A DNA stretch of 64,000 nucleotides from Candidatus Saccharimonadales bacterium (GTDB lineage Bacteria; Patescibacteriota; Saccharimonadia; QS-5-54-17), in the NCBI GenBank assembly GCA_040903985.1, contig JBBDUI010000002.1, positions 198,038 through 262,037 of the forward strand, given 5' to 3'. Of this stretch, positions 30,636-56,590 are shown in pieces; position 1 is the stretch's first letter; each line of letters starts with the position of its first letter. A model generated the notes under the pieces. That model was not told the origin of the DNA, did not search any database, and saw only the letters and a program-made list of their open reading frames with translations. A program made the position numbers and the translations under genes.

Positions 30636-31029
30636 AATGTTGTTACAAAGACAGCACTAACATCGGTGCCTGAACTTGCAGGCCGAAAATAGCTGTAGTA
30701 ATTACTAATTAAGTTGGACGTGAATCAAAACACAAAAGACGTTGACCTATTAGTACACCTCGGCTAAACACGTTGCCGTGCGTACACCTAGTGCCTATCA
30801 AACAGGTGGTCTACCTGTGGTCTCAAACGAAACCTAGTCTTGTGGGGGGCTTCGTGCTTATATGCTTTCAGCACTTATCCCTGCCGAACGTAGCTACCCG
30901 ACACTGCCGCTGGCGCGACAATCGGTACACCAGAGGTTCGTTCACTCCGGTCCTCTCGTACTAGGAGTGACTCCGCTCAAGTTTCATCGCCCACACCGGA
31001 TATAAACCGAACTGTCTCACGACGTTCTA

Positions 31030-31078
<49 letters not shown>

Positions 31079-31088
31079 GATGCTCCTC

Positions 31089-31125
<37 letters not shown>

Positions 31126-31157
31126 AGCGCCGTCTATGTGGACTATTGGGCGCGATA

Positions 31158-31192
<35 letters not shown>

Positions 31193-31833: not shown

Positions 31834-32607
31834 CAAATCTTAAGTTATATTTACTTTAGATACGCATGTTTTCTAGTGGCACGATTTCTCGCCACACCCT
31901 ATATCGCTATAGGGATCGGACTATATCTTCTCCATCTGGAGTCCGGCGTATAGTCTCTGAGGGTTCTAGTTCCGTATTTTTCGCCGATTCGTATTCGCCG
32001 CTAGTCGTCGTATCTGAACGAGACCCTCTATACTCAGATGTTCCTTTCTAGCTATCATTGCTATTACTTCACAGAAGATAATAAAATCTTGCTGTTTAGC
32101 AGTTTGTAATGGATAGACTTCAAAGAATGGAATTATCCTTTCCTGAATATCTCTAATAGATCTGACGCAGTAGCGATACAGTGGCTCACGATGGTTATCG
32201 TATCTCGTATTGACGTATATATTACCACAGCCAAAGAAAGATTGAATACTTTCTAAGACCGACAGGCTCTTAGCGCCTTGGGTTACTACAAACTCTGGAA
32301 ATACTGGATATCCAGAAAGAGTAGTAGCGTTTTTAAATACGCTGACTGCAAAACAGCCCTCCCCATCAACGAAACCGTTTATCCACCACGGATCTAGCCT
32401 TCCCTGCTGATTGTCCGCACCTGTCGCATTATTAGTTACCATATATTCAGTATACCGAACAGTATACGAACATACAATTACTAGCGCAGGATACTACAGT
32501 CCTTTTAGGACACGGGGTTTCCAGCATATAGCCAGATTTTCTTCTCGAAACCTCACACGAGAGGAAAAACGAGAAGAGGGTCATTCACCCTACTAAGGCA
32601 GCATTCT
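31834..32607 (-). mobile_element. group I-type intron in 23S rRNA (insertion between exon sequences ...GAATTTCGCT and ACCTTAGGACGG..., near E. coli position 1917), carrying a homing endonuclease ORF
   Basis: Conserved 23S exon sequence is contiguous except for about 775 nt inserted at a classical intron site. The insert encodes a LAGLIDADG protein in the rRNA sense orientation. The boundaries are ambiguous by about 2 nt. Confidence 0.8.
31966..32442 (-). CDS. LAGLIDADG homing endonuclease (single-motif, I-CreI-like size, 158 aa)
   Basis: ...LDPWWINGFVDGEGCFAVSV... is the LAGLIDADG motif. The ORF is embedded in the intron on the rRNA strand. Confidence 0.85.
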   Translation of the reverse strand: MVTNNATGADNQQGRLDPWWINGFVDGEGCFAVSVFKNATTLSGYPVFPEFVVTQGAKSLSVLESIQSFFGCGNIYVNTRYDNHREPLYRYCVRSIRDIQERIIPFFEVYPLQTAKQQDFIIFCEVIAMIARKEHLSIEGLVQIRRLAANTNRRKIRN

Positions 32608-34158
32608 ACCTTAGGACGGTTATAGTTACCGCCGCCGTTTACTGGGGCTTCAGTTCAGAGCTTGCACTCGTTCCCTTAACCTTCCAGCACTGGGCAGGCG
32701 TCAGCCCGTATACATCCACTTTCGTGTTAGCACGGACCTGTGTTTTTAGTAAACAGTCGCTTGAGTTCTTTTACTGCGGCCCTACACCCTAAAAGGGTGC
32801 GGGGCAGGCCTTATCCCGAAGTTACGGCCGTTATTTTGCCGAGTTCCTTAACGAAGGTTCTCTCGTACACCTTGGTCTACTCGACCTGAGCACCTGTGTT
32901 GGTTTGCGGTACGGTTAGCTATGTTTATACGTATCGCGTCTTTTCCGGTCGGTTTGGCTTGCGCAACTCTCCCGTAATCGGGATCGCATTCGTGCTTCAC
33001 CTCCACAAAAGTGGAAACTAGACACTTAGACAGTTATAGCCAAAAAACTGCTTGCGCTACCATACCGCACAACGCGATACAACAACATCACTAGTACGGG
33101 AATATTAACCCGTTGTCCATCGCCTACGCACTACGCCTGGGCTTAGGACCGACTAACCCTGAGATGATTACCATGGCTCAGGAAACCTTGCTCTTTCGGT
33201 GGAAAAGATTCTCACTTTTCTTATGGCTACTAATTCCAGCATTCTCACTTCCTTGCGCTCCAGCTGGCCTTCCGGCTCACCTTCAACGCTGCAAGGAACG
33301 CTCCTCTACCACTCCAGTATGAGACAAAACCTACGGTTTCATCTCAAGTTCACTTACGTTCACTGCTCTTTTTCCCTGATAGTGTATTTCACTTCGAATT
33401 TATGCGAAAATTATTCGTTCATATCTTAATCAGAAATCAATAAGCACAACTATAAGCTTAGTCTCATACTAGAGTCCGCGATTTCGGTACCAAACTTAGC
33501 CCCGTTACATTTTCCGCGCAGAATCACAATCGATTAGTGAGCTGTTACGCACTCTTTAAATGAATGGCTGCTTCTAAGCCAACATCCTAATTGTCTTTGC
33601 GACTCTACCTCGTTTCCCACTTAGTTTGGATTTAGGGACCTTAATCGGCGGTCTGGGCTGTTTCCCTTTCGAGCGCGGAGCTTAGCCCCCGCGTTCTAAC
33701 TGCTGTGCTTCCACGATCGGTATTCGTAGTTTGACAGGGATGGATACGGTTGCCCGCTCCAGACCCAATCAGAGCTCTACCTCCAACTGCTACCACACAA
33801 CGCTAGCCCTAAAGCTATTTCGAGGAGAACCAGCTATCTCCAGGTTCGATTAGCATTTCACCGCTATCCACAGGTCATCCAAACACGTTGCATTGTGTCC
33901 TGGTGCGGCCCTCCACGAACTGTTACGTCCGCTTCAGCCTGCCCATGGATAGGTCACCTGGTTTCGGGTCTACTTCATAAAACTAATTTCGCCCTATTAA
34001 GGCTCGCTTTCACTACGCCTACTCCGCTTATGCGGATTAAGCTAGCTTTATAAAGTAACTCGCTGGATCGTTCTACAAAAAGCACGCCGTCACCCCGATA
34101 AATCGGAGCTCCGACTCCTTGTAGGCACACAGTTTCAGGTCTATTTCACTCCCCTTAC

Positions 34159-34201
<43 letters not shown>

Positions 34202-34980
34202 ATCATACATCATATTTAGTCTTGGAAGGTGGACCTCCCAGATTCAGTCAGAGTTTCACGTGTTCCGACCTACTCGAGATAAAAAACATAAGGTTGCTAC
34301 GTTTTCGGATACGAGGCTTTCACTCTCTTTGGCAGTCCTTTCCAGAACTTTCTCCTAACCCAGCAATTTGTAACCTTACAGATCTATGACAGTCGATCTT
34401 CATCTCGATATCATCTCTAGCGATAACTATTTATCAACCAGAGATGATATCGAGAGTCGTCTAATATCTCACAACCCGATACAAGTATTCGCCTGTCAGC
34501 TTATTCGTGTAAGTTAATACTCGAAAACTTATATCGTTTAGACTGTTTCCCTTTCGCTCGCCACTACTGAGGAAATCGCATATGCTTTCTATTCCACCGG
34601 GTACTAAGATGTTTCAGTTCCCCAGGTTCCCTCGCACTATCCTATATATTCAGATAGCGGTGACTCTGTATTACCAGAGCCGGGTTTCCCCATTCGGACA
34701 CCCCCGGATTATAGCTCGTTTGGCAGCTCCCCGAGGCTTATCGCAGCCTACTACGTCCTTCGTCGGTGAATGTATGTCAAGGCATCCGCTGTGCGCCCTT
34801 TCTCGTCTTTTGCATTACCAAGAACTGTTGAAGTTCTTGGATTTCACACCAACTTAATTAGCAAATAGTACAGCTATTTGCTAAATGTTTGTTAACGTTC
34901 TAAGCTCCCTAAAAATGCAAAGCCTAAATGACTGCTGACCCCTATAATCGGCAATCACTTAAGCTCATAGCGCAAGCTGG

Positions 34981-35010
34981 ATTGTATCACAGGAAAATAA
35001 CGCCTGTAAA
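34981..35010 (-). promoter_or_regulatory. candidate sigma70-type promoter for 23S-5S transcription
   Basis: On the minus strand: TTTACA, an 18-nt spacer, then TACAAT. This sits about 150 nt upstream of the 23S 5' end and immediately downstream of the NOX-like gene stop. Confidence 0.5.
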
Positions 35011-35077
35011 TACCTCTGATACTTTGGTTTTTATCTTTCCCCTCATTATAGAGTGGATAGCCCTAGCCGTCCAGTAG

Positions 35078-36394
35078 CTAGAAAGAGAACTCTTCGTAGT
35101 GCAGACGATCCTCGTCGATTCCAGCAGCAACGAACTGCTTACGCAGACCGTTTAACATCGGTGGTGGACCACAGATAAAGATAGCGGCGGCCTGGATGTC
35201 CGCTCGCTGCTGTAGCAACTCTAAATTCATGAATCCCTCCCGCTCCTCACAGATGTGGTGCATTCGAAAGCCGGCATGGCGCTTAGCCACTGCGGTTAGC
35301 TCCGTATGAAATAAGGCGTCGGTGTCTGACTTAGTACAGTAGAAGAAGTCGATATCGTACCGCAGCTTATCCGGAAAACTCCGCACCATACTGAGGAACG
35401 GCGTGATACCGATGCCACCGGCGATCCAGATCTGACGACGACTAGTTGAGTTGAGATAACTAAAATTGCCATATGGGCCGTCGACAATAGCTCGGACGCC
35501 AGGATGCACCTCCCCGATCTTAGCCGTGTAATCCCCCAAATTTTTAACGACGAAGCCAAGCTGACGATCGTGACGGCTCGAGCTAAAGGAGAACGGATGC
35601 GCCTCTCGTTGTACCGCAGCATCCCGCATACTCAAGTAGCCGAACTGACCCGGTCGAAAACTGACCGGATGCCAGCTCGGCTGCAGAATAATCTCAGTGA
35701 TGTCTTCCCCCAGATGGTTAACCGCCTCTACCCGGTAAGGGTACTTTTTAGTTAACCATTCTCCCAGAACCGAATGATACAGATAACTGAGAGCACCGAT
35801 GAATGTCACGATCAGCATATACCGCCGTAAAGCCGGGTTATCCAGAAGATGACCGCTAGCTAGGAAGGTGTGCAGGGCGGCCGGTACCAACAACAGCCCC
35901 AGTAAACGGTGAACCGTCAAAAAGGTTTGATATGGTAGTTTATACAACACTGTCGCTGTTAAGAGAGCGGCCATGCCCAAGAAAGCGATTACTCCCCATG
36001 TAACCACCGCGTCGACCCCCGGTACCCACATTCGCAGTGCTCCCAGTGGAGCGCTCATAGCGATAGCCGCTGTGATCGCTACAGCGTGTACGGCAATGGC
36101 GATAAAGCTATAGCTACCAAAGATACGATGTGCCTTATAGGCCTTATCTAAACCAAGAAAGAGCTTATCAATCGATTTCAGTCGCGCCCCCAACACCAAC
36201 GACCACATAAAGCTAGCGAAACCGGTAAATGCCCCCACTTTAGCCACGACAGTTAAGCCATGGCGGAGAGTTGACACCTCACCGATTAGCTCGGGCAGCC
36301 TAAGCCACAGGTAAAGCGGTATGATAAGGGCGACGCTCAGACTGACACTCCAGCCCAGGCTACGTCGCAATCGATTCCGTATATCTTCTCTCAT
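35078..36394 (-). CDS. ferric reductase/NADPH-oxidase-like (NOX/FRE family) flavocytochrome: 6-TM ferric-reductase domain fused to FAD- and NAD(P)H-binding domains
   Basis: His-containing TM helices, an FAD-binding HPFSFSS motif, NADPH-binding GGIGITPF, and CGPPPM. Confidence 0.7.
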   Translation of the reverse strand: MREDIRNRLRRSLGWSVSLSVALIIPLYLWLRLPELIGEVSTLRHGLTVVAKVGAFTGFASFMWSLVLGARLKSIDKLFLGLDKAYKAHRIFGSYSFIAIAVHAVAITAAIAMSAPLGALRMWVPGVDAVVTWGVIAFLGMAALLTATVLYKLPYQTFLTVHRLLGLLLVPAALHTFLASGHLLDNPALRRYMLIVTFIGALSYLYHSVLGEWLTKKYPYRVEAVNHLGEDITEIILQPSWHPVSFRPGQFGYLSMRDAAVQREAHPFSFSSSRHDRQLGFVVKNLGDYTAKIGEVHPGVRAIVDGPYGNFSYLNSTSRRQIWIAGGIGITPFLSMVRSFPDKLRYDIDFFYCTKSDTDALFHTELTAVAKRHAGFRMHHICEEREGFMNLELLQQRADIQAAAIFICGPPPMLNGLRKQFVAAGIDEDRLHYEEFSF

Positions 36395-36415
36395 TAAGCT
36401 GTATTATGGCATATC

Positions 36416-36445
36416 ATAACGCCTGTCGCTAGCGACAGGCGTTAT
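36416..36445. terminator. perfect palindromic hairpin (CATAACGCCTGTCGC-TAGC-GACAGGCGTTATG) between convergent or adjacent genes, probably a terminator
   Basis: 14-bp perfect arms located between the 36473 stop and the 36394 start. Confidence 0.5.
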
Positions 36446-36472
36446 GATGCTTTGACCGAATCCAAACTGATA

Positions 36473-37327
36473 CTAGGCGGGACCGGTAGTTGGCAGCTGC
36501 TCTGGACCGGTGGTTGGAATCGCTTCCGGTTCAGGCTCTGGTTCTGGCACCGGCTCAGGCTCGGGCTCGGGTTCCGGTTCAGGCTGAGCTGCGACTATTA
36601 CTAGCTCGCTAGAGCTATCGTTTTGCCCCTGCAGCACTCCGTTATCGGCTGTGGCCGTCACATTATACGTGCCGGCTGCCAGTTCCTGCGTTATCTCTAC
36701 GGACCATGTACCATCAACCGCTAATTCGGCTTCATACTCTTCGCCATCTACCAAAACTGTCACAGTAGCCTCTGGGTCATCTACTGTACCGGTTACTGTC
36801 GGAGTAGCATCCTCAGTCTCAATCCCGTCAACCTCTACCTCGATCACCTCTGGCTCTGAGTCTGGAGTGGCTACCGGCTCTTGGACAGTCGGCCCCTCTG
36901 AGCTAGCATCACTCCAAAAGAAGTACCAGCCCGCACCGCCCAACGCTACTAATAAGATAAGAGCACTAAGCGCAATTAAGATCCACTTGTGCGACTGAGA
37001 TGGCTGCTCCATATAAGCACCCGTATTATTAGCTCCAGTTTGGAGTGGAAAGCTCGAGGACTGAGATTGATCTAGGCGGGATGAAACGTCACCATTAGCA
37101 GATGAGGCGCCATATGCTGCCGGGTCACCCATGGTTTGATCTGTGCTTGACTCGGCAAAGCGATCTGGACCAGCTAAATTAACTTCGGCTGGATTAGCCG
37201 CCGGAAGTGGGCTGGTGTCAAAGCTGGTATCGACCGGTGGTGTTACTCCTGGAGACGGGGGCGACGTATTAGGAACATCCGGGGTGGCTGCTGCTGGTTG
37301 TGGCAAATCTGGTTTTTCTTCTGGCAT
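36473..37327 (-). CDS. membrane-anchored low-complexity protein: Pro-rich N-terminus, single TM, Ig-like/acidic domain, (PE)n repeat, C-terminus ...LPTTGPA
   Basis: TM segment WILIALSALILLVALGGAGWYFFW, PEPEPEPEPEPVPEPEPEPE, and a terminal LPTTG with no following hydrophobic tail. Confidence 0.5.
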   Translation of the reverse strand: MPEEKPDLPQPAAATPDVPNTSPPSPGVTPPVDTSFDTSPLPAANPAEVNLAGPDRFAESSTDQTMGDPAAYGASSANGDVSSRLDQSQSSSFPLQTGANNTGAYMEQPSQSHKWILIALSALILLVALGGAGWYFFWSDASSEGPTVQEPVATPDSEPEVIEVEVDGIETEDATPTVTGTVDDPEATVTVLVDGEEYEAELAVDGTWSVEITQELAAGTYNVTATADNGVLQGQNDSSSELVIVAAQPEPEPEPEPEPVPEPEPEPEAIPTTGPEQLPTTGPA

Positions 37328-37472
37328 ATTGAACTCTTTTTATATTATTAGTTTTTATTTCTAACTTCTATACTTACGTTCAACTATATACGTAAGCGGA
37401 TTGCCTTGTCAAGCTCTAGGTCGCTATCGCCACGAGTTGGCGACATTTTTTGTTTTGTGGGACAATAACAGC

Positions 37473-38015
37473 ATGAGAAAGCTAACCACCTACTTCATTA
37501 AAGGGCTGCTCTTCCTTCTGCCGATCTTACTGGTTATTACCCTAGTGCGAGAACTGTTCTCCATCGTCTTGCCTACAGGGGTGGGATTCATAAGCGGCGT
37601 AACTACTCTCGGCATAGCTATCCTAATTACTACTCTCGTCGGAGCTGTAATAACTGGCGGACTTCAGCCTTACTTTAAACGCAGAGCTCTCCGTGGCCTG
37701 GGCAAGTTCCCCTTTCTGAACCAGATATTTACCTCAATGAAACGGTTTGTACTAATCCTCAACTTCTCCCGGGAAATATTTGAAAACCCGGTTATAGTAA
37801 CCCGCGAGGAAGGTCGTGAGATAAAATTCGGCTTTGTAACTCGCTCAGGTCTGGAGCAGTTTGGTCTCAGCCAGCACTCTAGTGTCTATCTGCCCGATCC
37901 ATTCTCCTTCTTAGGCGAGATGGTAGTGGTAGCTAACAAAGACTTGAGGCCAGTAGAAGGGAAACGATCAGAGGTATCGAACTTCATCTTATCCGGGGGA
38001 CTAGTACAGAAATAA
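37473..38015 (+). CDS. DUF502-family membrane protein
   Basis: About 180 aa from the internal Met (MRKLTTYFIKGLLFLLPILLVITLV...), with two N-terminal TM segments and a conserved C-terminal domain typical of COG2928/DUF502. Confidence 0.55.
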   Translation: MRKLTTYFIKGLLFLLPILLVITLVRELFSIVLPTGVGFISGVTTLGIAILITTLVGAVITGGLQPYFKRRALRGLGKFPFLNQIFTSMKRFVLILNFSREIFENPVIVTREEGREIKFGFVTRSGLEQFGLSQHSSVYLPDPFSFLGEMVVVANKDLRPVEGKRSEVSNFILSGGLVQK

Positions 38016-38110
38016 AGACGCATTTGCGCCTGCACCATACAGATGCGCCCGAGGAGTAGGGCTTCGAAGGTCTACCGCCTGGGTCTGATCTGGTCGGTTC
38101 TCAAGTATAT

Positions 38111-38162
38111 TCTCCACCAAGAAAAGAGTCCGGCTGACGCCGAGACTCTTTTCTTGGTGGAG
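38111..38162. repeat. 20-bp perfect inverted repeat (TCTCCACCAAGAAAAGAGTC ... GACTCTTTTCTTGGTGGAGA) overlapping the 3' CCA end of tRNA-Ala
   Basis: It can form a long hairpin incorporating the tRNA 3' terminus. This may be a processing or termination element. Confidence 0.6.
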
Positions 38163-38231
38163 ATGGAGGGACTCGAACCCTCGACCCCCTGCTTGCAAAG
38201 CAGGTGCTCTAGCCAACTGAGCTACATCCCC
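38155..38231 (-). tRNA. tRNA-Ala (anticodon TGC), CCA encoded
   Basis: Sense sequence GGGGATGTAGCTCAGTTGGCTAGAGCACCTGCTTTGCAAGCAGGGGGTCGAGGGTTCGAGTCCCTCCATCTCCACCA gives a cloverleaf with a CTTTGCAAG anticodon loop. Confidence 0.92.
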
Positions 38232-38304
38232 ATGCTTGAGTAATTTTAAAGGTATGGCTACCCCTAAGCACGTACCAGAGTATACAATAAATATAATCGT
38301 AAAA

Positions 38305-38541
38305 CTATATTCTCGGCTCTAGCTTTTCCCAGAAAGCCTCGGCCCGTACTTGATAGCCGCGACTATTAGGATGAAACCAATCAGCTGCATAATCAAGCAG
38401 GGGGTTAAGCTTGCCCCTAGTCGCCTCATATAGCGGAACGAAGACCAGGCCATTTTCAGCGGCAGCAAGTCTTATTATCCGGCTAGCTGATTCTGCCTTC
38501 TGATTAGTCTTACTGCTGCCGAAGCTAGGCACACCAGCCAT
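38305..38541 (-). CDS. short ORF resembling the C-terminal block of an SGNH/GDSL hydrolase (DxxH motif); possible gene fragment
   Basis: ...DYAADWFHPNSRGYQVRAEAFW... resembles SGNH block V. It is only 78 aa long. Confidence 0.35.
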   Translation of the reverse strand: MAGVPSFGSSKTNQKAESASRIIRLAAAENGLVFVPLYEATRGKLNPLLDYAADWFHPNSRGYQVRAEAFWEKLEPRI

Positions 38542-38801
38542 TACAAGATGTCGCTGGCAAGCGTCGACTGGCCGTCGCCCTTGATCGCCGCCTTGAGTTC
38601 GTCCAGTGTCGTGGCGGCCTCGACGGCGGCGAGGAGCTCAGCTCGTGGGTCTGGTCGCGTGGCGATCGCCTCGTCATAGGCAGCCTGCAACGTAGTTTCG
38701 TCCGGCTCGTCGCCGTGGACGGTCAACGTCTCACCTACCTTTGTGTAGGCGATGCCGAGATGGGCTAGGGCGCACTTGCGCTGTGTGGTGTCCAATGCCA
38801 T
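38541..38801 (-). CDS. hypothetical protein, very G+C-rich, translationally coupled to the upstream tail-fibre-like gene
   Basis: 86-aa ORF whose start overlaps the stop of the 38801-40129 gene. G+C is far above the window average. Confidence 0.45.
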   Translation of the reverse strand: MALDTTQRKCALAHLGIAYTKVGETLTVHGDEPDETTLQAAYDEAIATRPDPRAELLAAVEAATTLDELKAAIKGDGQSTLASDIL

Positions 38802-40129
38802 CAGGAACGTACCTCCGTGAGTGTCATCAGCGCCCCCGCTATGATAGATGACTCCACATTTGGTGACCCGGTCGGCCAGGGGCCGTGCTCTAGACGGTAG
38901 GTACGGGTGGCCGTCGATCCCGGTTCGTGCTCGCCTTCGAGCGCAATCGGGGAGTAGAACGTGGCCGTTTCGCTGGACGATGCAAGCAGACGGTGACCAC
39001 GACGCTCGTTGGTGACCACCTCGTCGCCAGTCGTGTCGCGGATTTGCACGACACCGTTGCGGTTAATCGAGCTACCGGACACCACCGAGTAAGTAACCTG
39101 TCCCGAAACGCGGGCGAGGATGATCGAATCGGCGTACGCTGGCATGATCGTGGCTTCGAGACCGGAGTCTTGCGGCGTGTCGGCGGTAGTGTCCGAGTCG
39201 CTACCCAAGGTCGCAGTGACGACCTGCACCACAGACGCACTACTCCCAATCGCCTGATCATGCTCGGTGATGGCTTGTTGGACATTTACGGCTGTGGTGT
39301 GTTCCAGGCCGGTCGGGTCAAACTCGATGTTGGTAGCTGGGTGGGCGTCTGCTACGGCCTCATGATTAGTGATAGCTGTAGTAGCGGTACCGGCAGGATC
39401 AGCTCCTACATCACTGGCATCCAGAGAAACAATACCGGTATCACCGTTGACAGACTGGACGGGGGCTTCGGCTGCTGTGATGAAGGTAGCGGAGTGAGCT
39501 TCATTACCATGCTCGGTTGGAGTACGGGTAGCACTGGCATCATCTAGGGTGGCATCACTAATCTTGGCGTTGAGGGCAGCTAGGGTGGTAGCACTGTGTT
39601 CGATACCACCTAGTGAGTGACCTTTCGGTACTTGGGGGTCGGCTAGTTCGCCGGAGAGGCCATCGACGTTCAGTTCATCAGTTCCGCCGGATTGGTGGGT
39701 GGTGGTGTGGTTAGCTACATCACTAGCATCTAGAGTTACTGCTCCGGTCTTAGAGTTGATGCTTAGTACGGGGGCAATAGCAGCTACCCAGGTGCTAGTG
39801 CCACTATCGTAGGTTAAGACATCTTGATCACTGGCAGTATCGGTATCGGTATCATCTAGGGCGGCTAGAGAGGAGCCGACACCTGGGAGTCCATCAACAT
39901 AGGCTTTAGTGACGGCGTCTTGAGGGGTGGTAGGGTTGGCTAGTCCGACAATCTTGTTTCCGCCTAGGGATAGCTCTCCGCCCATAGTATCGCCACTGCG
40001 GTTGAGCTTCTGAGTTAGCTCAGTACCACGTTTGAGGGAGCCATCACTAGCTAGTTCGACACTGAGGTATTCGTTGAGGATGTCTCCCCATGTTCCTTCG
40101 TCTGATCCGGGGATTGGTAGTCGTGGCAT
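38801..40129 (-). CDS. phage tail-fibre-like protein
   Basis: The N-terminus has the classical tail-fibre motif ...SGDTMGGELSLGGNKIVGLANPTTPQDAVTKAYVDG.... Repeats SINSKTGAVTLDASDV and SVNGDTGIVSLDASDVGA follow. The 3' half and the downstream ORF are much more G+C-rich than the window, which suggests a chimeric or foreign origin. Confidence 0.65.
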   Translation of the reverse strand: MPRLPIPGSDEGTWGDILNEYLSVELASDGSLKRGTELTQKLNRSGDTMGGELSLGGNKIVGLANPTTPQDAVTKAYVDGLPGVGSSLAALDDTDTDTASDQDVLTYDSGTSTWVAAIAPVLSINSKTGAVTLDASDVANHTTTHQSGGTDELNVDGLSGELADPQVPKGHSLGGIEHSATTLAALNAKISDATLDDASATRTPTEHGNEAHSATFITAAEAPVQSVNGDTGIVSLDASDVGADPAGTATTAITNHEAVADAHPATNIEFDPTGLEHTTAVNVQQAITEHDQAIGSSASVVQVVTATLGSDSDTTADTPQDSGLEATIMPAYADSIILARVSGQVTYSVVSGSSINRNGVVQIRDTTGDEVVTNERRGHRLLASSSETATFYSPIALEGEHEPGSTATRTYRLEHGPWPTGSPNVESSIIAGALMTLTEVRS

Positions 40130-40231
40130 TATACTTTAGCTTCAATGTTTAGTTGCTATGTACCCAATATAGAGTGGTTGTGGTTATCTGGCAACTGGTG
40201 GGAGGTGGGAGTTATTATCGATTGGGGTCAT

Positions 40232-40262
40232 CCGGGACTCGAACCTGAGGCCTCGTCATTAG
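40232..40262 (-). pseudogene. degenerate partial copy of a tRNA 3' half (T-arm GGTTCGAGTCC plus part of the anticodon stem)
   Basis: GGGACTCGAACCTGAGGCCTCGTCATTAG parallels GTGGACTCGAACCACGGACCTCGTCATTATCAG of the adjacent tRNA-Ile. It cannot fold into a full tRNA. Confidence 0.6.
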
Positions 40263-40305
40263 GTCTCGCTTTGCTCGATAAAGCATAATAATTTTTCAAT
40301 CCAAA

Positions 40306-40383
40306 TGGTGGGGCTGCGTGGACTCGAACCACGGACCTCGTCATTATCAGTGACGCGCTCTAACCAGACTGAGCTACAGCCCC
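40306..40383 (-). tRNA. tRNA-Ile (anticodon GAT), CCA encoded
   Basis: Sense sequence GGGGCTGTAGCTCAGTCTGGTTAGAGCGCGTCACTGATAATGACGAGGTCCGTGGTTCGAGTCCACGCAGCCCCACCA. Confidence 0.92.
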
Positions 40384-40410
40384 TCCATTTGGATTGAATT
40401 ATAAAAGTAC

Positions 40411-40560
40411 GAAACAGTGACGCGCTCTAACCGGGCTGAGCTAATCGCCCTCCAGCTGTATTTTACTATCTTCAGAATACACAGTGACGCACACTAGCTG
40501 GGCAGCTGTGTCCGCCATAGCCCCCAAGCGACGGCGGAAGCTAATCGCCCCTATAAAAGC
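40411..40560 (-). repeat. two tandem, progressively degenerate copies of the tRNA-Ile 5' half plus its upstream flank (remnants)
   Basis: Positions 40414-40460 match the tRNA 5' half: CAGTGACGCGCTCTAACC identical, then ...GCTGAGCTAATCGCCCTCCA. Positions 40478-40560 repeat ACAGTGACGC... and ...GCTAATCGCCCCTATA with an internal insertion. Confidence 0.65.
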
Positions 40561-40718
40561 ACACCTTATTGTAACCAGAAATCACCTCCTGGGGCAAGTC
40601 GGAATTACTGGTATCGATATTATTTATGTTTAGTAGTCATTTAAACAACAATCACCCTGTCATTCGACAGGGTGATTGTTTGTAGCTTTAAGTGCTTAGA
40701 CTGTGCAGCATAACCAAC

Positions 40719-40848
40719 CCCGCACCTGAGATGCAGGCAATAGCATAAGCTATTGCGACTCGGCTAGCCCTAACTTTCTAATGAAATAGCTAGGAACTAG
40801 TTACAGCTAAAGTTCTTGCGAACTTTACTGCATTTCAGGTGCGGGGCC
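40719..40848 (-). ncRNA. structured spacer element downstream of 16S: 19-bp long-range stem enclosing two hairpins (candidate processing element or small RNA)
   Basis: CCCCGCACCTGAGATGCAG at 40719-40737 pairs with CTGCATTTCAGGTGCGGGG at 40830-40848. Internal hairpins are GCAATAGC-ATAA-GCTATTGC and CTAGC...GCTAG. Confidence 0.4.
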
Positions 40849-40959
40849 GACCTTGGGATCTATCACTAACTCGACCCTTCGTTCCCACCAATGGCGGGAC
40901 CTTATCTTCGAGCGTAATAGGTCTAGTTTCGATTATTAATCGAAACGGTTTTCCCTAGA

Positions 40960-42445
<1,486 letters not shown>

Positions 42446-42704: not shown

Positions 42705-42734
42705 ATAATAATCGAGCGGCATAGACAGTGTCAA
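42705..42734 (-). promoter_or_regulatory. strong sigma70-type promoter for 16S rRNA
   Basis: On the minus strand: TTGACA, an 18-nt spacer, then TATTAT. This sits about 255 nt upstream of the mature 16S 5' end. Confidence 0.6.
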
Positions 42735-42866
42735 CCCCAGCTATAAGTTATACTAACTAGAAATAACAACCCCGGTTTTATAAACCAGCTGCTAGCCCCT
42801 ACTCCTCAGCCTTTAGCTAAATGGCTCACCTCGACGAGCGTAATCCTCTCTATTGGTCTCTACTAC

Positions 42867-45800
42867 CTACTCGGTAGCTGTCGGGCTAGAGAAGCCGGCC
42901 CCAATTACGTGGTAGTCAAAGCTGTATTCGGTACCAGCTGTCACCGGGACGGTAGTGACCAGCATGAACCCTGCGGGAGTCGACTTCACATACACCTCCA
43001 AGCTAGTAGCGGCGGCATTTCTAGCCGAAATCGTGACTCGGGGCGGGAAGGTGTAAATTTGAGAGAAGTCGATCCGCGCTAACTCATACTCATTAGTCTC
43101 CACCACGCTCTCTGATACCACCACATTAATAGTTCCGGCTACATCAGTTCCGCTTAAACTAACTGTACCGCCTTCTAGATCAGCCCCGGAACTGGCTTCT
43201 GGGGTGTTACCGGTGCTGAGAAGATGTCCTCCTATACTTAAGTTCATGCTTACTCGTACTGCTGAGACACTAAGAGTACCCCCGATCACCACATCTCCGG
43301 TCACCTCTAAGCTAGCCAGCGTACTAGCACCACTCACGTTCAAGCTTGAGAAGTCAACTTGCTCACCACTATCCTGTACGCTTTCGCTGGCTTGCTGTAA
43401 TTGTGGTATATAGTTCTCAGTCTTCACAAAGACCATCACTGAGCCGACGTCGCTACCACTGTAACTCTCTAGGGCATAGCCGACAATTCGTGCCGGATCA
43501 CTAGCTTTCATTCCGACCCCTGGAGTTTCAGAGAGGGTAATGGGGTCGCCTACAGCTATGCTGCCATTCTCTGTGGTTACATTTACTGGCACCCGACCGA
43601 CTAGGGCAAGCGGTGCGCCCTCGGTCTTCGAAGCTAAGACCAAACCAGGCTCAGTAGAGATAATCCCAGCTAGAGACACGCTCGTGGTAGCTCTCACTAA
43701 CTTGCCTTCGGCGTTAAAGGCCACGATGTCACCGGGCTCAACCGGCTCGGCGGTGGCATAATGCTCAGCAACGTCGGCAGAAGTATCGGTTAGGAAAGCA
43801 TGGGCCCGCACGTTACCGGAAACAGTTAACTTGCTATCGGGAGAGGTGGTGCCGATACCTACATTTCCGCCCTGGATGAGAGTATTGGCGTTAGCGTCAA
43901 TCGTAAAAGCGTTAACCGTAGTCTCTTGGTAGTTGCTGATAGTTTCGCCATGAGAGACCACTGCAGCATAGGGCACGATCGGATTAATTATAGTTGGTAA
44001 CACCGTGCTGTTGGTTGGGCTATGACTGCCTACAGACGGGCTGACTGTAATTGATTCGGGCGAGATGTCAGTCTCCTCAAGCTCAATATCTTCACAAATA
44101 TCACCGCACCCCTCGATGTTAACCAGGCCATGAAATTTAGCCGCCATGAAATCGCTACCACCTGTACCGTAGCTAGACGTAATGCCAGCCACCACATACC
44201 CTCCATCACTAGTCTGGCGAGCAGATCGAATTTGATCGCTACTGGTGCCGCCCACTACCCTAGTCCACTCTTCAGCTCCACTGGAGTTAAACTTAATCAA
44301 CATAAAGCTGTTATTGCCCGGCCCATAGCTGGCGGTATAGCCGCCTAGAATGTAGCCTCCGTCACTAGTCTGCTGTACTGATTGAACGACATCACTACCA
44401 GTTCCACCCGCTACCTTAGTCCACTCATGAGCTCCATCAGAGTCGAGCTTAACCAGCATAAAGTCGTTACTACCGGCACCGTAACCGGAGGTATAGCCTC
44501 CAATGATATAGCCCCCGTCACTAGTCTGCTGTACGGACTGGGCTGTTTCGCTACCGGTGCCACCTATCACTCTTGTCCACTCATGAGCTCCATTGGAGTC
44601 GAGCTTAACCGTCATAAAGTCGCCACTGCCCGCACCATAGCTGGAGGTAGAGCCGGTCAAGATGAAGCCACCGTCACTGGTATAATCCATATCATTCGTC
44701 GTATCACTACTACTTCCTCCGATCGCACGTGTCCAGAGACTCACGCCATTACTATCGAGTTTGGTTATATTAAAATCATTACTACCCCCGGTTGTAAAAG
44801 TAGAGCTATACCAAGAGATGGCATAGCCTCCGTCACTGGTCTGTTTTACAGTAGAAGGCGATGACTCACTACTGGCGCCACCCAGTGTCTTACTCCAGCT
44901 AACCGCTCCATTAGCCGTAAATTTAATAACCATTAGATCGTAACTTCCCGCCCCCAAACCGTTAACTCGTCCCGAAGCGATATATCCCCCATCTGTAGTT
45001 AAATCTACCGAGTAGCCAATGTCACTACTGGTGCTACCCAGTACGGTCGACCATTCCAGCTGACCGAATACGTTAAGCTTAGAAAGCATCCAGTCGCCAC
45101 TACCCGCACCGTATGAGTTAGTCTCTCCCACAACGATATAACCACCATCACCGGTCTGACGGATTGAATAAGCCGAATCACTGCTCGTCCCGCCCCATGC
45201 TGTTATGAAACTCGATGTGCTTGTGCCGATATTTGCCCGAGTAGTCACGCGTAGAGCATCACGACTTAGATCGGTATGATCTATCTCCAGCCGACCTCCT
45301 AAACGAGTGTTGCCTTCTACGCGAAGATCCTCTTGAACAAATAGATCCCGGTCCAGGCGGGTATCGCCACCAACTCGAGCATCGCCCTCAACTAAAAGGT
45401 TACTAGTATGCGTCTGGCCGTTCGTTATCTTTACTACGGTCAGAGCGTCTGCCCCGCTACTTGCGATATATGCATAGCTGTCGGCAACAAATAACCCACT
45501 AGCACCTGCTAAATCGCCATCACTTATGCTGCCCGTCTGAGTCGGTGCAGCTGGGTCGACCACATCGACGACCGCTAACGTGCCCGTAGTGTCACTTGTA
45601 ACATACGCGTAGCCACCGCTGAAGAACACTTCGCTAGCGCCGGTCAATTCGGCCGATGTCACCGTGCCCACCTGGGATACTGCGGCCGGATTAGTAATGT
45701 CAATTACTGTTAACGAACCGGCTGTGGCGCTGGCCACGTAAGCATAGTCTCCACTCACAGCCACGCTTCTAGCCCCATTCAAATCAGTATTAGCTATGCT

Positions 45801-47015
45801 ATCGACTGTGCTTAAGGCGGCCGGATTAGTAATATCGATTACTGTTAACGAACCGGCTGTGGCGCTGGCCACGTAAGCATAGTCTCCATTCACAGCAACT
45901 CCCCGGGCGCCTACCAAATTAGCGGAGCTAAAGCTGCTAACTTGAGTTAAATCATTTGGATCACTGATATCAACAACCGTTAGGCTACCAGCATAATGAC
46001 TAGCGATATATGCATAGTTCCCACTAATAGCGATATCGCTAGCGCCTTCGAGATCAGTATTATTAATGTAAGTATCTACCTTAACAGGAGTAGTAGGATC
46101 GCTAATATCGATCGAGACGACAGAATCCGCATGGAAGCTGGCCACGTAAGCATAATCTCCACTTACGGCTACCCTTCTAGCACCATTAAGCTCGACCGCA
46201 TCCGATACGCTACCGACCTGGGCTAGCTCATCAATATAGCTAACATCAACTATCGTCAACGCATCGGCCTCAGAGCTTGCCACGTAGGCATAAGAGTCCC
46301 TAATAACTACTCCACTTGCCCCGACAAGTCCGGCAGTAGTTAAAGCCCCAGAGGAAGACAAGCTCGAGTTAGTAGCCACTCGCAATATATCCTGTCCGCT
46401 ACTAGTCTTAACAGCCAGAGCACTCGCTACCGGTGCGACTGAACGAACAGATGCCTCTCCATATACATCGAGTGCCACCTGCGGGCTGCTAGTACCAATG
46501 CCGAGACGACTACTAGTATTATCCCAGTGGAAGTTACTATTACCAGTTAAAGAGTCACTCCCATCAAAGAAAGCGATCTGGCCCACACTACCGCTACCCT
46601 GAAGGCCACCACTACCACCACCAGGACAGTTACCAGAGGCATCGCAGACTTGATTGCCATTTTGGAGTAAGCTGGTAGCTGTTATCTGCTGGAAGGTATT
46701 ATTGCCACTAAAAGTATTGTTCGCATTAAGAAAGGCTACATTACTACTTAAAGCTCCGTCAGCTACCGAACCTGCGCTCGAAATTGTCAGATCCTCATCC
46801 ACCTCACTATTCTGAATCGACTGTCCCAATAGCGAGACACTCGCATCAAGCCGAGCGTTAGACAATGTACCAGTACTTATATTACTAGCATTGGTAAAGT
46901 AGGAGCTTGTATTCCCTCCTAAGCTTGCTGCATTAACGTTAGTGAGATTAGCTCCGTCACCCTGGAGACTACCCGCGATCAAGGTACCAGATATATTGAT
47001 ATGCCCTGACTGCAC
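42867..47015 (-). CDS. giant surface protein: Gly-rich N-terminus, about 10 LVIVD-type beta-propeller repeats (SGDYAYVAS...LTVIDI), about 9 SBBP-type repeats (TSDGGYI...YGAG..D), and a C-terminal tail-fibre-like region ([16 protein letters not shown])
   Basis: The repeats are periodic at both protein and DNA level. It probably starts with GTG and is probably the continuation of the upstream collagen-like ORF. Confidence 0.6.
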
Positions 47016-47664
47016 CGTCCTGACCGTCAGCTCCGGCTGGTCCTTGGGAGCCGGTCGGACCCTGAATACCCGCGGGCCCCTGAGGTCCGATAGGCCCTTG
47101 TGAACCAGTTGCCCCTTTTGCGCCGGCTGGACCTGAAGGACCAGTCGGGCCTTGTGGACCAGTGGCTCCCCTAGCTCCGGTCGCGCCTACGCTACCGCTA
47201 GCAATTACTCCATCCGAATCATCCGCTACAGCAGATTCATCGTTATCCTCCTCTACATCGTCAGCAGCTGGGCTGTCAGACTGTGAGGCTACCAGCTCCT
47301 CTGTAGCTTTACTTAAGTTCTCTACTTGAAGTGCTAATTTATCTTGTTGAGCGTCAAGTCTATCTTGCTGTAACGAGATTTCCCGCTCTGATTGCTGGCT
47401 GTTAGCCGCCGGCATAATACTCCTCATAGTCCACATCTGCGAAACAAGTAGTACTACTACCGCGATGCTGACAGCTATAACGGTAGCATGACTGGTGTTA
47501 TGCGGAGTGTAGGGCGGATAGTTATGGGGTGGGTATGGACCTGCGGTGCCCTGGGGATGATACGGCGAACCGACTACCGGTGCAGCCTGATTCGTGGGCA
47601 TATCAGGGGCTGATTGCTGATTATAATCGTCTGGCAAAACTGAGTTTTGTTGCTCGGGATTCAT
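46969..47664 (-). CDS. membrane-anchored collagen-like protein (Pro-rich N-terminus, single TM, coiled coil, about 20 Gly-X-Y triplets); likely the N-terminal part of the giant protein
   Basis: TM segment [17 protein letters not shown] and [58 protein letters not shown]. The last 14 codons are non-collagen and overlap the next ORF in another frame. Confidence 0.65.
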
Positions 47665-47855
47665 TATTTTGTGTTACGTTTATTCTCTATTTTGTATACT
47701 TTTTTTGTACTATTCTCTTGCAGAATAACCTACCCATAACAACTTGTCAACACATCCTATACCCTAAATATGCTCTCTGTAGCAAGAAGCCTGTCTATTT
47801 CTGATTTAACAATATGATACCCACTCAAATCACTAACCTGTGCGTCTAATGACTC

Positions 47856-53236: not shown

Positions 53237-56200
53237 CTAACCTTGATGGACCTTACCTTCATCGTCGATATATATCTCACCCGGTTGCAGCTTGGGAACG
53301 GCTGACTCGGTAGGGTTACTCTCAGCAGCTTCGGGCTTAAGCGGTTTTTGCTCCGGCATCACTACCCCGGTACCAAACGGCGAGACTAACGGCTCACTAC
53401 TATCATCGGGGGTAGACTCTTCCGGCGGCACTGGCTGAGGCTGTACCACGTTTGCCTCCGGAGCTTCCGACTGTTGTAGGCCTGCCTCAGCCGTTTCGCT
53501 AGACTCAGGCCTCGCCTGAGCAGCTGTAGCGGCCGACTCAGCCGGCTCTACATGGGGCTCATCCCCTGCCGGCACTAATGGAAGAACACTACTATCCGTC
53601 TGCTCCACGTCGGAACTCGCGGACGCAGTAGAGATGTCACCCTCCACTTGAGCCGGCAGCTCGGGCAAATCAGGTGACTTAGGCGTAGATTGATCTGCGT
53701 CCTCTTCCTGCTGCAGCGCGGCTGAGGGTGGCGCTGGGAAAGATAGTGGAGACGGGGGTGTAAAAGTCTGGGAGTCACCGCTAGGAGGGGATGAAGCCGG
53801 GGCAGAACTGAATGATATAGGCTCAGGAGTAGATAGGTTCGGCGACTCAGACGGTGCGGGCGGCTGAGTCTGAGCCGATTCAGATACACCGCTACTCTTA
53901 GGAGCTGCCTGGTCGGCGTAGGTGGATGTCTGCTTAGGTGAGTGATCGGTTGGTTCAAGCTGAGGTCTAGGGGCAGACTGAGAAGCCGCTTGCTGCAATG
54001 TGGCACGACGTTTATCAAGCCACTCGTCTAAGAACGAAGCTGAAGCAGCCCCCCCGCTAGCTCCTGGACTGGCGGATGGCCCGGAACCACTCCCCAATGG
54101 CGGACCGGTCGACTCCCGGGAGTTGGTGGCTAAACTCTCAAACGGACTTGGAGCCGGTTGTGAGGCTACCCGATCGAATATCTCCTTCTCTACTTCAGCC
54201 CGAGGACGACCGTACTTAGCGGCCGAAAGCTTCTTCAGCGCCTGAGCTAACTGCGGCTTAGACGAAGCTAGCGGCGGCAAGGCAGCAATGTTAAACGGCT
54301 GAGTCGGTAACCCACCGCTCATCAATCGAATCGCAGCGTTAAAGTTAGGCAGGTTGACTAGATCACGCTCGTTAAAGGCCGGAGCAAACTGCTTCACTAG
54401 AAAGTCGGCATCGGCCGGACCGGTGCGGTAGCTAATAATAGTACCGACATTACCGAAGACCGCATCGCGAATCTCATCGCTCAACTGGGAGATAAACTGG
54501 TTAGCTACGATCAGGTTCATCCGGTACTTCCGTGCCTCGGACAGAATGAAAGCAAATGACTCGGTCGAAAAGTTCTGGAACTCATCGACGTAGAGAGAGA
54601 AATCTTTTCGCTCATCTTCCGGTACATTAGCCCGGCTCATAGCGGCAGCCTGGAATTTCATAACGAAAATCATACCGAGCAGCTGAGAGTTAAGTTCACC
54701 TAGGCGCCCCTTACTAAGGTTAGCGATTAGGATCTTATTACTATCCATCAGCTCACGCAGATCGAAAGCGCTCTTAGTCTGACCGATAGTGTTACGCATC
54801 AACTGGTTACTTAAGAAGGCACCAAACTTAGAGACGAACCAACTCACCACTTCACCAAAATCGTTAGAGCGCTGAGATTGTGGCATCTCCTTTTGCCAGA
54901 ACTCGCGGACCGACTGGTCCGTCACGTGCTTGAGCTTTTGCCGCACAAACTGCGGATCGCGGAACAGCTTCGGAATATCGACGAAGGTACCGCCGGCCGG
55001 ATCGGCCATGACCGTTAATGCGGCATTACGGAACAAGTGTTCATAGCGCGGACCGATGATACCGGTATGCTGCGGGTCATACAGGCGATAAAGCATATTA
55101 ATAGCTTCCTGAATCAAGAAGTCTTTCTGATCCTCCGTCCGGTATTCAAAGATGTTCAGTCCCATCGGGGTATCCATGTTGCCGGGATCGAAATAAATAA
55201 CGTCCTCACTCCGTTCCGGTGGCACCATGCCGAGCAAACGTTCGGCCTCATCACCATGCGGATCGACGAAGGCGAAGCCCTTACCATCCATCATATCCTG
55301 CACCATCATGTTTGATAGCGCCGTCGTCTTACCGGTCCCGGTCTGCCCCACGATATAGACATGACGCCGACGGTCTTCATCGCTGAGACGAATCTCCTTC
55401 TTTACACCATGGTAGGAATTGTGGCCCAGCATCACTCCATCTTTACTGAGCCGGGTCGGTCCTTCCACCTGCTTGGAAAACTGCCGCTGCAGCTGAGTCG
55501 TCTTAGTAAACTGATCGTCCGGCAGGTGGAATAGGGTGGCTAGCTCCACGCTGTTGAGTACCATCTTAGCTCGCTCTGGCGGGAAGAAACGGAAGATAAA
55601 ATCGGTCACAAACTTCTCGATACTCTTCGCCGGCTCGAACTTGAAGCCGTTTAGTCCCGGCGCATCGAAGAGGGAGAAGGCCGAGATGACGTTATGAGTG
55701 ATCGACTGGGCTCGCGTAGCCGTGCCAGAAGAGGCGATCACTCGAATTAAAACTTCATAGCCGGAAGACTTGGTCTTCTCCTCGATCGCATCTAGCATCG
55801 ACTGCTCTAAGCTAGTTAGCTGTTTAGGAGGCTTCGGACCGCTGTCCTTGTCCCCGCTCTCTGGCGCCTTAAAGGGAGCTTGCAATAGCGACTTAGCTGA
55901 AATGCCGGACGAGCCCTTATCGTCTCGCTTCTGCTTCACGATGTGCTCGGACGACTTTGTCCAACCTTCCCGCGCCGGCCGCACCAGTATCTGCAGACTA
56001 GCTCCATCCCCCTGCTCCAAACTGGTGAGAGACTTAATCACGGCCTGCATAGCATCCCGTTTCAACTGATTAACCGTAGCGATCGGATAGGAATAAGCCT
56101 GTTTTAGCTTAATCTCACCGCCGTAGGTACCTGTAATCTTACCGGTAGCCGAAAAGATATTATGGTCTTCGACCTCTTCCAGCTGAGCGCCCGGATAGGC

Positions 56201-56590
56201 CGTCAGTATAGCCTGTTTAATCACCGCTACTAGAGCGACCGGAACCGCCGTATAGAGACGTATAACCCCGTCGATAGCTACGATCTCAAACGCTAAGTGG
56301 CGTTGGCCGAAGAACTTACTCTTGAACCCCTTCGTCGCCGTACTGGCGATCAAGTTAAACAACACCTCGGCCTGAGATATGCGCTCCTGGATAACGTCAC
56401 GCACATCGCGACCACCAACCTCTACATCTTCACTGGAGGGCGGCAAATTAATTAAGATCGGCACCATTTTAATACCGCGTTCTACCCCCTTAGCAAAGCG
56501 GAGGCCCTTACGGTAGACGATAAAGCCGGCCCCAGCCAGAGCAAGAATGATAATCAGAACGGTTGAGAAAATGATCAGCGCGTCCATCAC
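53237..56590 (-). CDS. type IV secretion coupling-protein-like (TraD/VirD4/TrwB-type) P-loop ATPase with an N-terminal TM, a novel about 400-aa N-domain and an about 350-aa Ser/Pro/Ala/Glu-rich disordered C-terminal tail
   Basis: Walker A YIVGQTGTGKTT is followed 20 aa later by FVDPHGDEAE (the DPKGD-like motif). Walker B is LYVDEFQNF. This is an orphan: no other T4SS genes are nearby. Confidence 0.45.
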   Translation of the reverse strand: MMDALIIFSTVLIIILALAGAGFIVYRKGLRFAKGVERGIKMVPILINLPPSSEDVEVGGRDVRDVIQERISQAEVLFNLIASTATKGFKSKFFGQRHLAFEIVAIDGVIRLYTAVPVALVAVIKQAILTAYPGAQLEEVEDHNIFSATGKITGTYGGEIKLKQAYSYPIATVNQLKRDAMQAVIKSLTSLEQGDGASLQILVRPAREGWTKSSEHIVKQKRDDKGSSGISAKSLLQAPFKAPESGDKDSGPKPPKQLTSLEQSMLDAIEEKTKSSGYEVLIRVIASSGTATRAQSITHNVISAFSLFDAPGLNGFKFEPAKSIEKFVTDFIFRFFPPERAKMVLNSVELATLFHLPDDQFTKTTQLQRQFSKQVEGPTRLSKDGVMLGHNSYHGVKKEIRLSDEDRRRHVYIVGQTGTGKTTALSNMMVQDMMDGKGFAFVDPHGDEAERLLGMVPPERSEDVIYFDPGNMDTPMGLNIFEYRTEDQKDFLIQEAINMLYRLYDPQHTGIIGPRYEHLFRNAALTVMADPAGGTFVDIPKLFRDPQFVRQKLKHVTDQSVREFWQKEMPQSQRSNDFGEVVSWFVSKFGAFLSNQLMRNTIGQTKSAFDLRELMDSNKILIANLSKGRLGELNSQLLGMIFVMKFQAAAMSRANVPEDERKDFSLYVDEFQNFSTESFAFILSEARKYRMNLIVANQFISQLSDEIRDAVFGNVGTIISYRTGPADADFLVKQFAPAFNERDLVNLPNFNAAIRLMSGGLPTQPFNIAALPPLASSKPQLAQALKKLSAAKYGRPRAEVEKEIFDRVASQPAPSPFESLATNSRESTGPPLGSGSGPSASPGASGGAASASFLDEWLDKRRATLQQAASQSAPRPQLEPTDHSPKQTSTYADQAAPKSSGVSESAQTQPPAPSESPNLSTPEPISFSSAPASSPPSGDSQTFTPPSPLSFPAPPSAALQQEEDADQSTPKSPDLPELPAQVEGDISTASASSDVEQTDSSVLPLVPAGDEPHVEPAESAATAAQARPESSETAEAGLQQSEAPEANVVQPQPVPPEESTPDDSSEPLVSPFGTGVVMPEQKPLKPEAAESNPTESAVPKLQPGEIYIDDEGKVHQG

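Follow-up and report, generated by a model that had tools for sequence, protein, structure and literature searches.

Two overlapping open reading frames (ORFs) raise the question of whether they are separate genes or the halves of one broken gene and, if halves, whether the break is real and what became of the protein. They lie in a stretch of 64,000 nucleotides (nt), hereafter the window, from Candidatus Saccharimonadales bacterium (GCA_040903985.1, contig JBBDUI010000002.1, positions 198,038-262,037 of the forward strand). Saccharimonadales (TM7) are ultrasmall epibiotic bacteria. ORF A (46969-47664, 231 amino acids [aa]) and ORF B (42867-47015, GTG start, 1382 aa) are both present on the minus strand, as a sequence-only reading of this DNA had reported. 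That reading took them for one gene, disrupted by a frameshift near 47000-47020, whose product would be a long surface protein with an anchor and a stalk, and the comparison with relatives agrees, since homologues keep both halves in one polypeptide. The gene in the window is probably a recently inactivated (pseudogenised or 'off') copy, broken by a real indel at 47010-47016.

ORF A and ORF B overlap by 47 nt, in frames differing by +1. ORF A ends with Gly-Ala, 13 out-of-character residues and a TAG stop codon. The frame of ORF B is open upstream to ~47190, and its GTG is not evidence of a real start because it is merely the first start-type codon after a stop.

Homologues carry both halves in one polypeptide

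ORF B residues 1-140 were used in a HMMER search against 1.84 billion representative sequences, which gave 323 homologues (E ≤ 0.001); architectures were counted in the best-scoring 149 of these 323 representatives. Collagen lay upstream of the fibre module in 27 of the 149, and an N-terminal transmembrane helix was present in 21 of those 27. About 20 representatives showed the order transmembrane helix, collagen, a gap of 16-26 aa (mode 19) and then the module, aligned from query residue 2 or 3; a gap shorter than 16 aa between collagen and module was found in no collagen-bearing homologue examined. This gap is filled by a Cys linker, C-x2-G-x-C-[VL]-S-[LR]-Q-x2-[ST]-P-G-[TV], followed by Q-E-[TS]-G-x-I-N-x-S-G-T, and its C, G, C and Q are invariant in a 24-member alignment (A3). 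These 24 representatives define an unnamed transmembrane-collagen-Cys-linker-fibre family, whose module consists of Q-E-[TS]-G-x-[IL]-N-x-S-G-T and NASNISxGTLxxxRL repeats and whose ends vary (YadA_head, Peptidase_S74, FGE-sulfatase-like, LVIVD).

In the window, the module occupies ORF B residues 2-140 with 39-64% identity to the homologues, in a reading frame that differs from that of the collagen run. The 13 odd residues of ORF A (46969-47010) are this conserved module in the wrong frame, and ORF B starts exactly at the module that is internal to complete homologues. Because at least 24 distant homologues carry anchor, collagen, linker and module in one polypeptide, ORF A and ORF B were once one gene. 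The fused state is, judging from these alignments, the ancestral one.

A search with the joined N-terminus (534 aa) was swamped by collagen proteins, ORF B itself being unlisted; it is uninformative on the absence of an intact allele, and its junction-spanning matches alone were used. Five matches (P0010, P0019, P0028, P0031 and P0018) were continuous across the junction, running from the anchor/collagen part into ORF B as far as its residues ~100-190. Three of the five were examined on their contigs; each is a complete, single gene (675-834 aa) surrounded by housekeeping genes.

The comparison with orthologues by which the sequence-only reading would have judged the split was informative in part. 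It favours fusion at the level of the family; a full-length orthologue for testing the split itself was not found in the databases searched. When the whole of ORF B was compared with a collection of 5.8 billion sequences, no orthologue appeared; apart from ORF B itself, matches covered at most about one third of it, and the others were confined to the LVIVD region (17-34% of ORF B). JGI metagenome scans with the junction DNA and with the ORF A N-terminus found nothing, nor did a literature search by accession.

Two apparent natural splits among the homologues were rejected. P0365 (contig L010) is interrupted by a scaffold N-gap, and P0441, in the Flye-style contig L011, by a homopolymer indel (CCC to CC when compared with a tandem paralogue of 95% identity). 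The latter contig (ENA ERZ25039495 contig_102603) carries two tandem 95%-identical family paralogues at 1352-5104. The second paralogue needs two frame changes, one of them CCC-to-CC at the SPGT/QETG joint, which is the same joint as in the window; these frame changes are probably long-read error.

Candidate events at the junction

The A-to-B (+1) change that keeps both conserved readings is needed at GGT G/CAG (47010-47016, minus strand). The Cys linker is absent at the junction in all three frames of the window. Three events fit the sequence. The first is an insertion of G47013: deletion of this base gives a perfect tandem of two GACGGTCAG copies, and the Gly-X-Y pattern continues as GAD-GQD-GQS-GHI. 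The second is a loss of GT from GGT-GTG-CAG; restoring GT gives G-V-Q-S-G, which is near the family PG-V-Q-E-S-G. The third is a deletion of ~56-62 nt that would have taken the Cys linker and shifted the frame by one. In all three cases, a one-base correction does not recreate a typical family member, because the window lacks the family-invariant linker. The ancestral state or phase variation would be indicated if a minority of alleles read GGTCAG or GGTGTGCAG, or contained an insert of ~57-60 nt encoding C..G.C.S.Q..SPG.

Translation of the split gene

Kyte-Doolittle analysis of the whole of ORF B revealed no hydrophobic segment, which means that both a signal peptide and an anchor are lacking; ORF B is composed of extracellular-type domains. 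The only Shine-Dalgarno-like sequence, AGGA, ends 2 nt before the GTG, and ORF B has no usable ribosome-binding site. Translation from the ORF A start gives a 218-residue anchor and stalk followed by 13 junk residues. The full-length protein is probably not expressed in the window genome.

It is unlikely that the two ORFs are distinct working genes, with ORF A encoding a short anchored collagen stalk and ORF B translated on its own. Gene callers and NCBI annotation do list two genes, and the 47-nt overlap could permit translational coupling. However, a stalk gene that ends in the out-of-frame module of its neighbour, and a second gene that begins at a module internal to complete homologues, are not what two genes would be expected to show, and where representatives have the module within their first 30 residues, they are either incomplete sequences or products of gene calls that were split artificially. 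The 2-nt Shine-Dalgarno spacing and the lack of a signal peptide or transmembrane helix, despite the extracellular-type domains, also speak against an independently translated ORF B.

It is similarly improbable that one polypeptide is still made, whether the ribosome shifts by +1 at GUC-AGG-G (47010-47004) or a reversible indel acts as an on/off phase switch. In favour, frame A continues past the shift point with the rare codon AGG (2.3 per 1000), an AGGA immediately precedes that point, and the long ORF B is still fully open. However, any sequence read out of frame can be expected to contain rare codons, a tRNA would re-pair poorly from GUC to UCA, and the predicted folding of the RNA around the junction does not differ significantly from that of shuffled sequence (z = -1.05). 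A conserved shift was seen in no homologue, the two apparent splits being the N-gap and the homopolymer indel described above. Programmed +1 frameshift genes (prfB/Ty1-like) are marked by a slippery P-site codon, a slow A-site codon, a stimulator and conservation in relatives; the junction offers a rare AGG codon, but a re-pairing-competent codon, an RNA structure and shift-carrying relatives were not found. As for a phase switch, the junction does lie within a 9-nt near-tandem repeat (GACGGTCAG/GACGGT(G)CAG), but a homopolymer or multi-copy short repeat of the phase-variation type is absent.

Inactivation is favoured over both programmed frameshifting and two genes because ORF B has no export signal, no usable Shine-Dalgarno sequence and no shift signal. 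Of the possible single substitutions in ORF B, 3.05% create a stop codon, and an unselected ORF B would stay open with a probability of 0.28 at 1% and 0.08 at 2% neutral divergence. The inactivating event appears to be young, unless ORF B remains under selection.

The junction in independent assemblies

The exact ORF A product was found on two separately assembled Logan contigs, L001 (SRR27977661) and L002 (SRR27977662), and the exact ORF B product on L003 (JBBDOY010000002.1, GCA_040876815.1). In NCBI, two accessions list ORF B as a protein in its own right, annotated Candidatus Saccharimonadales. All three contigs were 100% identical to the window over 5.2-10.9 kb, without gaps and including the junction. 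The junction sequence, GAC GGT G CAG TCA GGG, contains no homopolymer, and no direct repeats of at least 30 nt were found flanking it; the sole repeat family is within the LVIVD region, where the Logan contigs break. The 20 other ORFs of at least 300 aa in the window are intact, including gyrA, gyrB, pheT, ileS and a ribonucleotide reductase gene. Assembly error or random sequencing error is unlikely. Because the junction was reproduced exactly in independent assemblies (two from Logan and the contig of an NCBI metagenome-assembled genome [MAG]), the frameshift, for which the sequence-only reading had allowed either a true or a sequencing origin, is a true one.

We therefore give little credence to a sequencing or assembly artefact that conceals an intact gene in the real genome. 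Collagen-like repeats are difficult to assemble, all the assemblies may share one project and platform, and artefactual splits are known in the family, from the N-gap in L010 and the homopolymer indel in L011. An error of this kind would, however, have had to recur in k-mer assemblies of two runs, in the NCBI contig and under two protein accessions, outside any homopolymer or long flanking repeat, and with no other housekeeping gene broken in 64 kb. A 1-nt correction would, moreover, still leave the invariant Cys linker missing.

Several points weigh against inactivation by a real indel. The support comes from assemblies, not reads, so an intact minority allele is possible. The window may carry a lineage-specific form that lacks the linker yet is functional, and no full-length orthologue shows an intact junction. 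The 1382-codon ORF is perfectly open, as continued selection (e.g. on expression via frameshifting) would give. We nevertheless consider a recently inactivated gene the probable state of this locus. An intein or intron was rejected because the ORFs overlap with nothing between them, an alternative genetic code is irrelevant because ORF B has zero internal stop codons, and it is very doubtful that the break at the stalk/tip joint is not decay but a reversible or translationally bypassed switch on tip display, within a modular host-recognition system with exchangeable tips, made of phage tail-fibre parts on a collagen stalk, that would be the counterpart in Saccharibacteria/Patescibacteria of the mosaic adhesive trimers (MAT) of Bdellovibrio.

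Domains of the joined protein

The joined protein has ~1600 residues. Its N-terminal part has the make-up that was read from ORF A before: a Pro-rich tail, one transmembrane helix, a coiled coil (recognised by eye), 20 Gly-X-Y triplets and an out-of-character end. The translated Pro/Gln-rich tail (47491-47664, minus strand, as are all features of the gene; residues 1-58) is presumably cytoplasmic, a topology suggested by the single transmembrane helix with no preceding signal peptide. The anchor (47434-47490, residues ~59-77) is the only Kyte-Doolittle window above 1.6 in the 1600 residues. It is followed at 47197-47412 by a likely coiled coil (residues ~85-125) and an acidic linker (126-156), both assigned by eye from sequence pattern; the candidate coiled-coil stretch is heptad-like and Gln/Leu-rich, and homologues P0019 and P0028 have an equivalent segment. 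The collagen-like run (47014-47196) comprises 20 triplets (residues 157-216) and the Gly of the 21st, and was matched by Pfam PF01391 (E 1.2e-9); a regular expression for Gly-X-Y gave a run of residues 157-219. Collagen rises 0.286 nm per residue, which corresponds to ~17 nm for residues 157-216.

The segment past the junction had been described as Gly-rich; it is actually the Asn/Ser/Thr-rich fibre repeat module (46596-47015; ORF B residues 1-140, joined residues 219-360), which ends near the Cys pair of CDASGNC. A first L-G-I-G-T-x2-P motif lies at joined residue ~390.

The LVIVD region (45423-46364; ORF B ~218-531, joined 436-749) is a seven-bladed beta-propeller. It was matched by Pfam PF08309 with E 3.5e-43 and 145.1 bits, against a gathering threshold of 20.2. 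The motif YAY[VI] recurs seven times with a period of ~45 aa, and the AlphaFold2 model of the region has 28 strands with a predicted local distance difference test (pLDDT) score of 96-99; both give seven blades in place of the ~10 LVIVD repeats counted earlier. Two adjacent blades (45682-45922) share 87% DNA identity over 106 nt and 96% over 80 nt, a similarity that points to a recent intragenic duplication or conversion. Both Logan contigs stop within the repeated blades, at 45859. The best relatives of the LVIVD region include the obligate predators Micavibrio aeruginosavorus and Bdellovibrio species, and several Patescibacteria.

After a short beta-rich connector (joined 750-815) come seven SBBP/DUF5122/delta-60-type repeats (44130-45224; ORF B ~598-962, joined 816-1180). 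The count, made from seven occurrences of DGG[YF] with a period of ~52 aa, likewise lowers the earlier figure of ~9. PF17164 matched this region with E 2.6e-8 when the whole of ORF B was searched and with 1.1e-11 when a 267-residue piece was used, and TIGR02608 matched it with E 4.9e-17, under its own cut-off. AlphaFold2 gave no reliable model of this region (pLDDT 30-40), for which its alignment contained no homologues; from sequence, the repeats are presumed to form a second propeller. A CGDIC motif follows at joined 1188-1192.

A GIGT-type neck motif (43776-43871, joined 1267-1286), conserved in alignment A1, precedes the autochaperone; its alignment with the beginning of the MYRF ICA domain has an E value of only 0.9. 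The next domain (43416-43775, joined 1299-1418) is Peptidase_G2-like and resembles the C-terminal autochaperone of phage phi29 gp12. Its AlphaFold2 core has a pLDDT above 90, and its top Foldseek matches in PDB were 3suc (E 3.1e-5) and 3gqh_A (E 1.6e-4, TM-score 0.55 on the target), which are pre-mature gp12 and a gp12 C-terminal fragment. In BFVD, 66 viral models matched at E ≤ 1e-3, among them 'preneck appendage protein' models with TM-scores of ~0.7. PHROG tail-fibre families were matched as well. PF11962 scored 16.7 bits (E 0.005), under its cut-off of 25, and was matched by nine of 61 homologues at E ≤ 0.01. An hhalign comparison with gp12 residues 687-768 gave 94% probability and E 1.4e-7, and placed A-D-V-A-E on gp12 S-D-F-A-E, with D and E at gp12 D692 and E695. 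D-V-A-E is residues 1299-1302 of the joined protein, the first of the G2-like domain, and D126, A128 and E129 (alignment A1 numbering) are at least 90% conserved, which makes D-x-A-E nearly invariant. In gp12, cleavage reportedly occurs at S691/D692 with catalytic roles for D692 and E695, a finding attributed to Xiang et al. in 2009. The C-terminal domain of gp12 serves as an intramolecular chaperone, which is removed by cleavage once the trimer has folded (PMC3357383). Profile and fold comparison thus give substance to the tail-fibre-like C-terminus proposed earlier, by matching it to the phi29 gp12 autochaperone.

A beta-rich segment (joined ~1440-1500) leads to a C-terminal beta-sandwich (42870-43178, joined ~1500-1595; AlphaFold2 pLDDT 75-89). 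Its sequence had zero Pfam matches even at E 10. Foldseek matched it to Helix pomatia/aspersa agglutinin (E 0.05-0.08, 24-26% identity, TM-score 0.45-0.55, probability 0.97-1.0), and the predicted fold is tentatively, and possibly, that of an H-type-lectin-like tip.

Proposed architecture of the intact protein

In the intact protein, a type-II membrane anchor would keep the Pro-rich tail in the cytoplasm by means of one transmembrane helix. The stalk would be trimeric and would consist of the coiled coil and a collagen triple helix of ~17 nm, followed by the Asn/Ser/Thr-rich fibre repeats. Each chain would contribute one LVIVD and one SBBP-type beta-propeller as binding modules, so that three copies of both propellers, with a phage-type tip, would be displayed by the stalk at a distance from the cell. 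After the GIGT neck, the Peptidase_G2-like intramolecular chaperone would register the three chains and be followed by the lectin-like tip; in relatives, the Cys linker may also help to register them. Self-cleavage at A1298/D1299, suggested by the gp12-like motif, might release the lectin-like end or leave it held non-covalently. A role in epibiont-host attachment may be inferred from this domain content and from the biology of Saccharibacteria.

Comparison with known fibre proteins

Streptococcus Scl1/Scl2, Legionella Lcl, Bacillus BclA and Pasteuria fibres likewise have a Gly-X-Y stalk that presents globular binding domains. The NCBIfam models SclB, Lcl and SclA matched the collagen part, far below their cut-offs (NF038329, 52.1 vs 325; NF046116, 39 vs 500; NF038330, 39.9 vs 400). 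LPXTG is absent from the joined protein; in contrast to Scl/Lcl-type proteins, the anchor is an N-terminal transmembrane helix, the cargo is two beta-propellers and a phage-type C-terminus, and the wider family has an invariant Cys linker past the collagen. Surface proteins with LVIVD or SBBP repeats gave a strong LVIVD match, but none has the full architecture.

The joined protein and phi29 gp12 (MEROPS/Pfam Peptidase_G2) are alike in fold, profile and D/E motif. Unlike gp12, the protein described here is cellular and membrane-anchored, not a virion part, and it has ~180 extra residues past the G2-like barrel, including the lectin-like domain. K1F endosialidase provides a precedent: each chain of its trimeric spike has one propeller, and its C-terminal chaperone is cleaved (PMC3357383).

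The MAT fibres of Bdellovibrio bacteriovorus have a signal peptide and a conserved beta-rich N-domain of ~130 aa (PMC10769870). They combine this constant cell-proximal part with a trimeric fibre and swappable C-terminal tips, some of which have an autoproteolytic chaperone (PMC10769870). The transmembrane-collagen-linker family also has a constant base and variable ends, but the likeness is functional only: MAT fibres have no collagen, and the N-terminus here, with its Pro-rich tail, transmembrane helix, coiled coil and collagen, has no sequence relationship to the MAT N-domain. The match to 8onf was a fold match of low probability only.

Genomic context

A promoter-like site, TTGACA-17-TATTCT (47722-47750, minus strand), lies upstream of ORF A, and a terminator-like hairpin (42772-42788, minus strand) follows the ORF B stop codon; the former came from a consensus scan, and both are pattern matches only. 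The 16S rRNA gene (40959-42443, minus strand) begins 424 nt beyond the end of ORF B. Between the two is a sigma-70-like site, TTGACA-18-TATTAT (42705-42734), which matches the consensus at 11 of 12 positions, so that the fibre gene is directly upstream of the putative 16S promoter, as had been noted from the sequence.

GTDB species representatives, a collection that excludes the window's own genome, were searched for this neighbourhood. The nearest syntenic relative is a Saccharibacteria MAG (L007), whose DUF212 neighbour is 51% identical. At L007 5680-7034, gyrB-gyrA-DUF212 is followed by 16S after 228 nt, and the adhesin gene is absent. Because DUF212 runs straight into 16S there, we take the fibre gene to be a lineage-specific mosaic inserted next to the rRNA operon.

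Other features of the window were recorded. The 16S and 23S rRNA genes are ~6.1 kb apart (34813-40958). The interval holds tRNA genes at 40309-40383 and 38158-38231, an ORF of 442 aa with no Pfam match (38801-40129), an ORF of 284 aa (36473-37327) and a 438-aa ferric-reductase-like flavoprotein (35078-36394). The 23S match (30731-34812, minus strand) spans 4082 nt against a 2925-nt model, an insertion of ~1.1 kb, and contains a 158-aa ORF (31966-32442, minus strand). The insertion may be an intron with a homing endonuclease; such 23S introns are common in Patescibacteria. Just upstream of gyrB, a 1117-aa protein (53237-56590, minus strand) has a region like the VirD4/TrwB type IV secretion coupling ATPase (PF02534, E 5e-6). 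The phenylalanyl-tRNA synthetase beta chain (57127-59895, minus strand, 922 aa) carries an NlpC/P60 domain (PF00877, E 3e-15) at residues 451-545, inserted between the B3_4 and B5 domains of pheT, which is an unusual fusion.

Meaning for Saccharibacteria

For annotation, ORF A and ORF B should be flagged as one disrupted gene. The fibre gene most likely belongs to a type of bacterial fibre adhesin that is conventional, although undescribed. The copy in the window is probably dead; it is of more use for leading to the family and for illustrating the recent loss of an adhesin than as a functional adhesin.

Saccharibacteria live attached to host bacteria, and their choice of host is, to our knowledge, largely unexplained. 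Several surface proteins that are predicted adhesins are essential in a cultured saccharibacterial species, according to a review of Patescibacteria (PMC11665869). The transmembrane-collagen-linker family, whose ends are built from phage receptor-binding parts and beta-propellers, offers natural candidates for host recognition.

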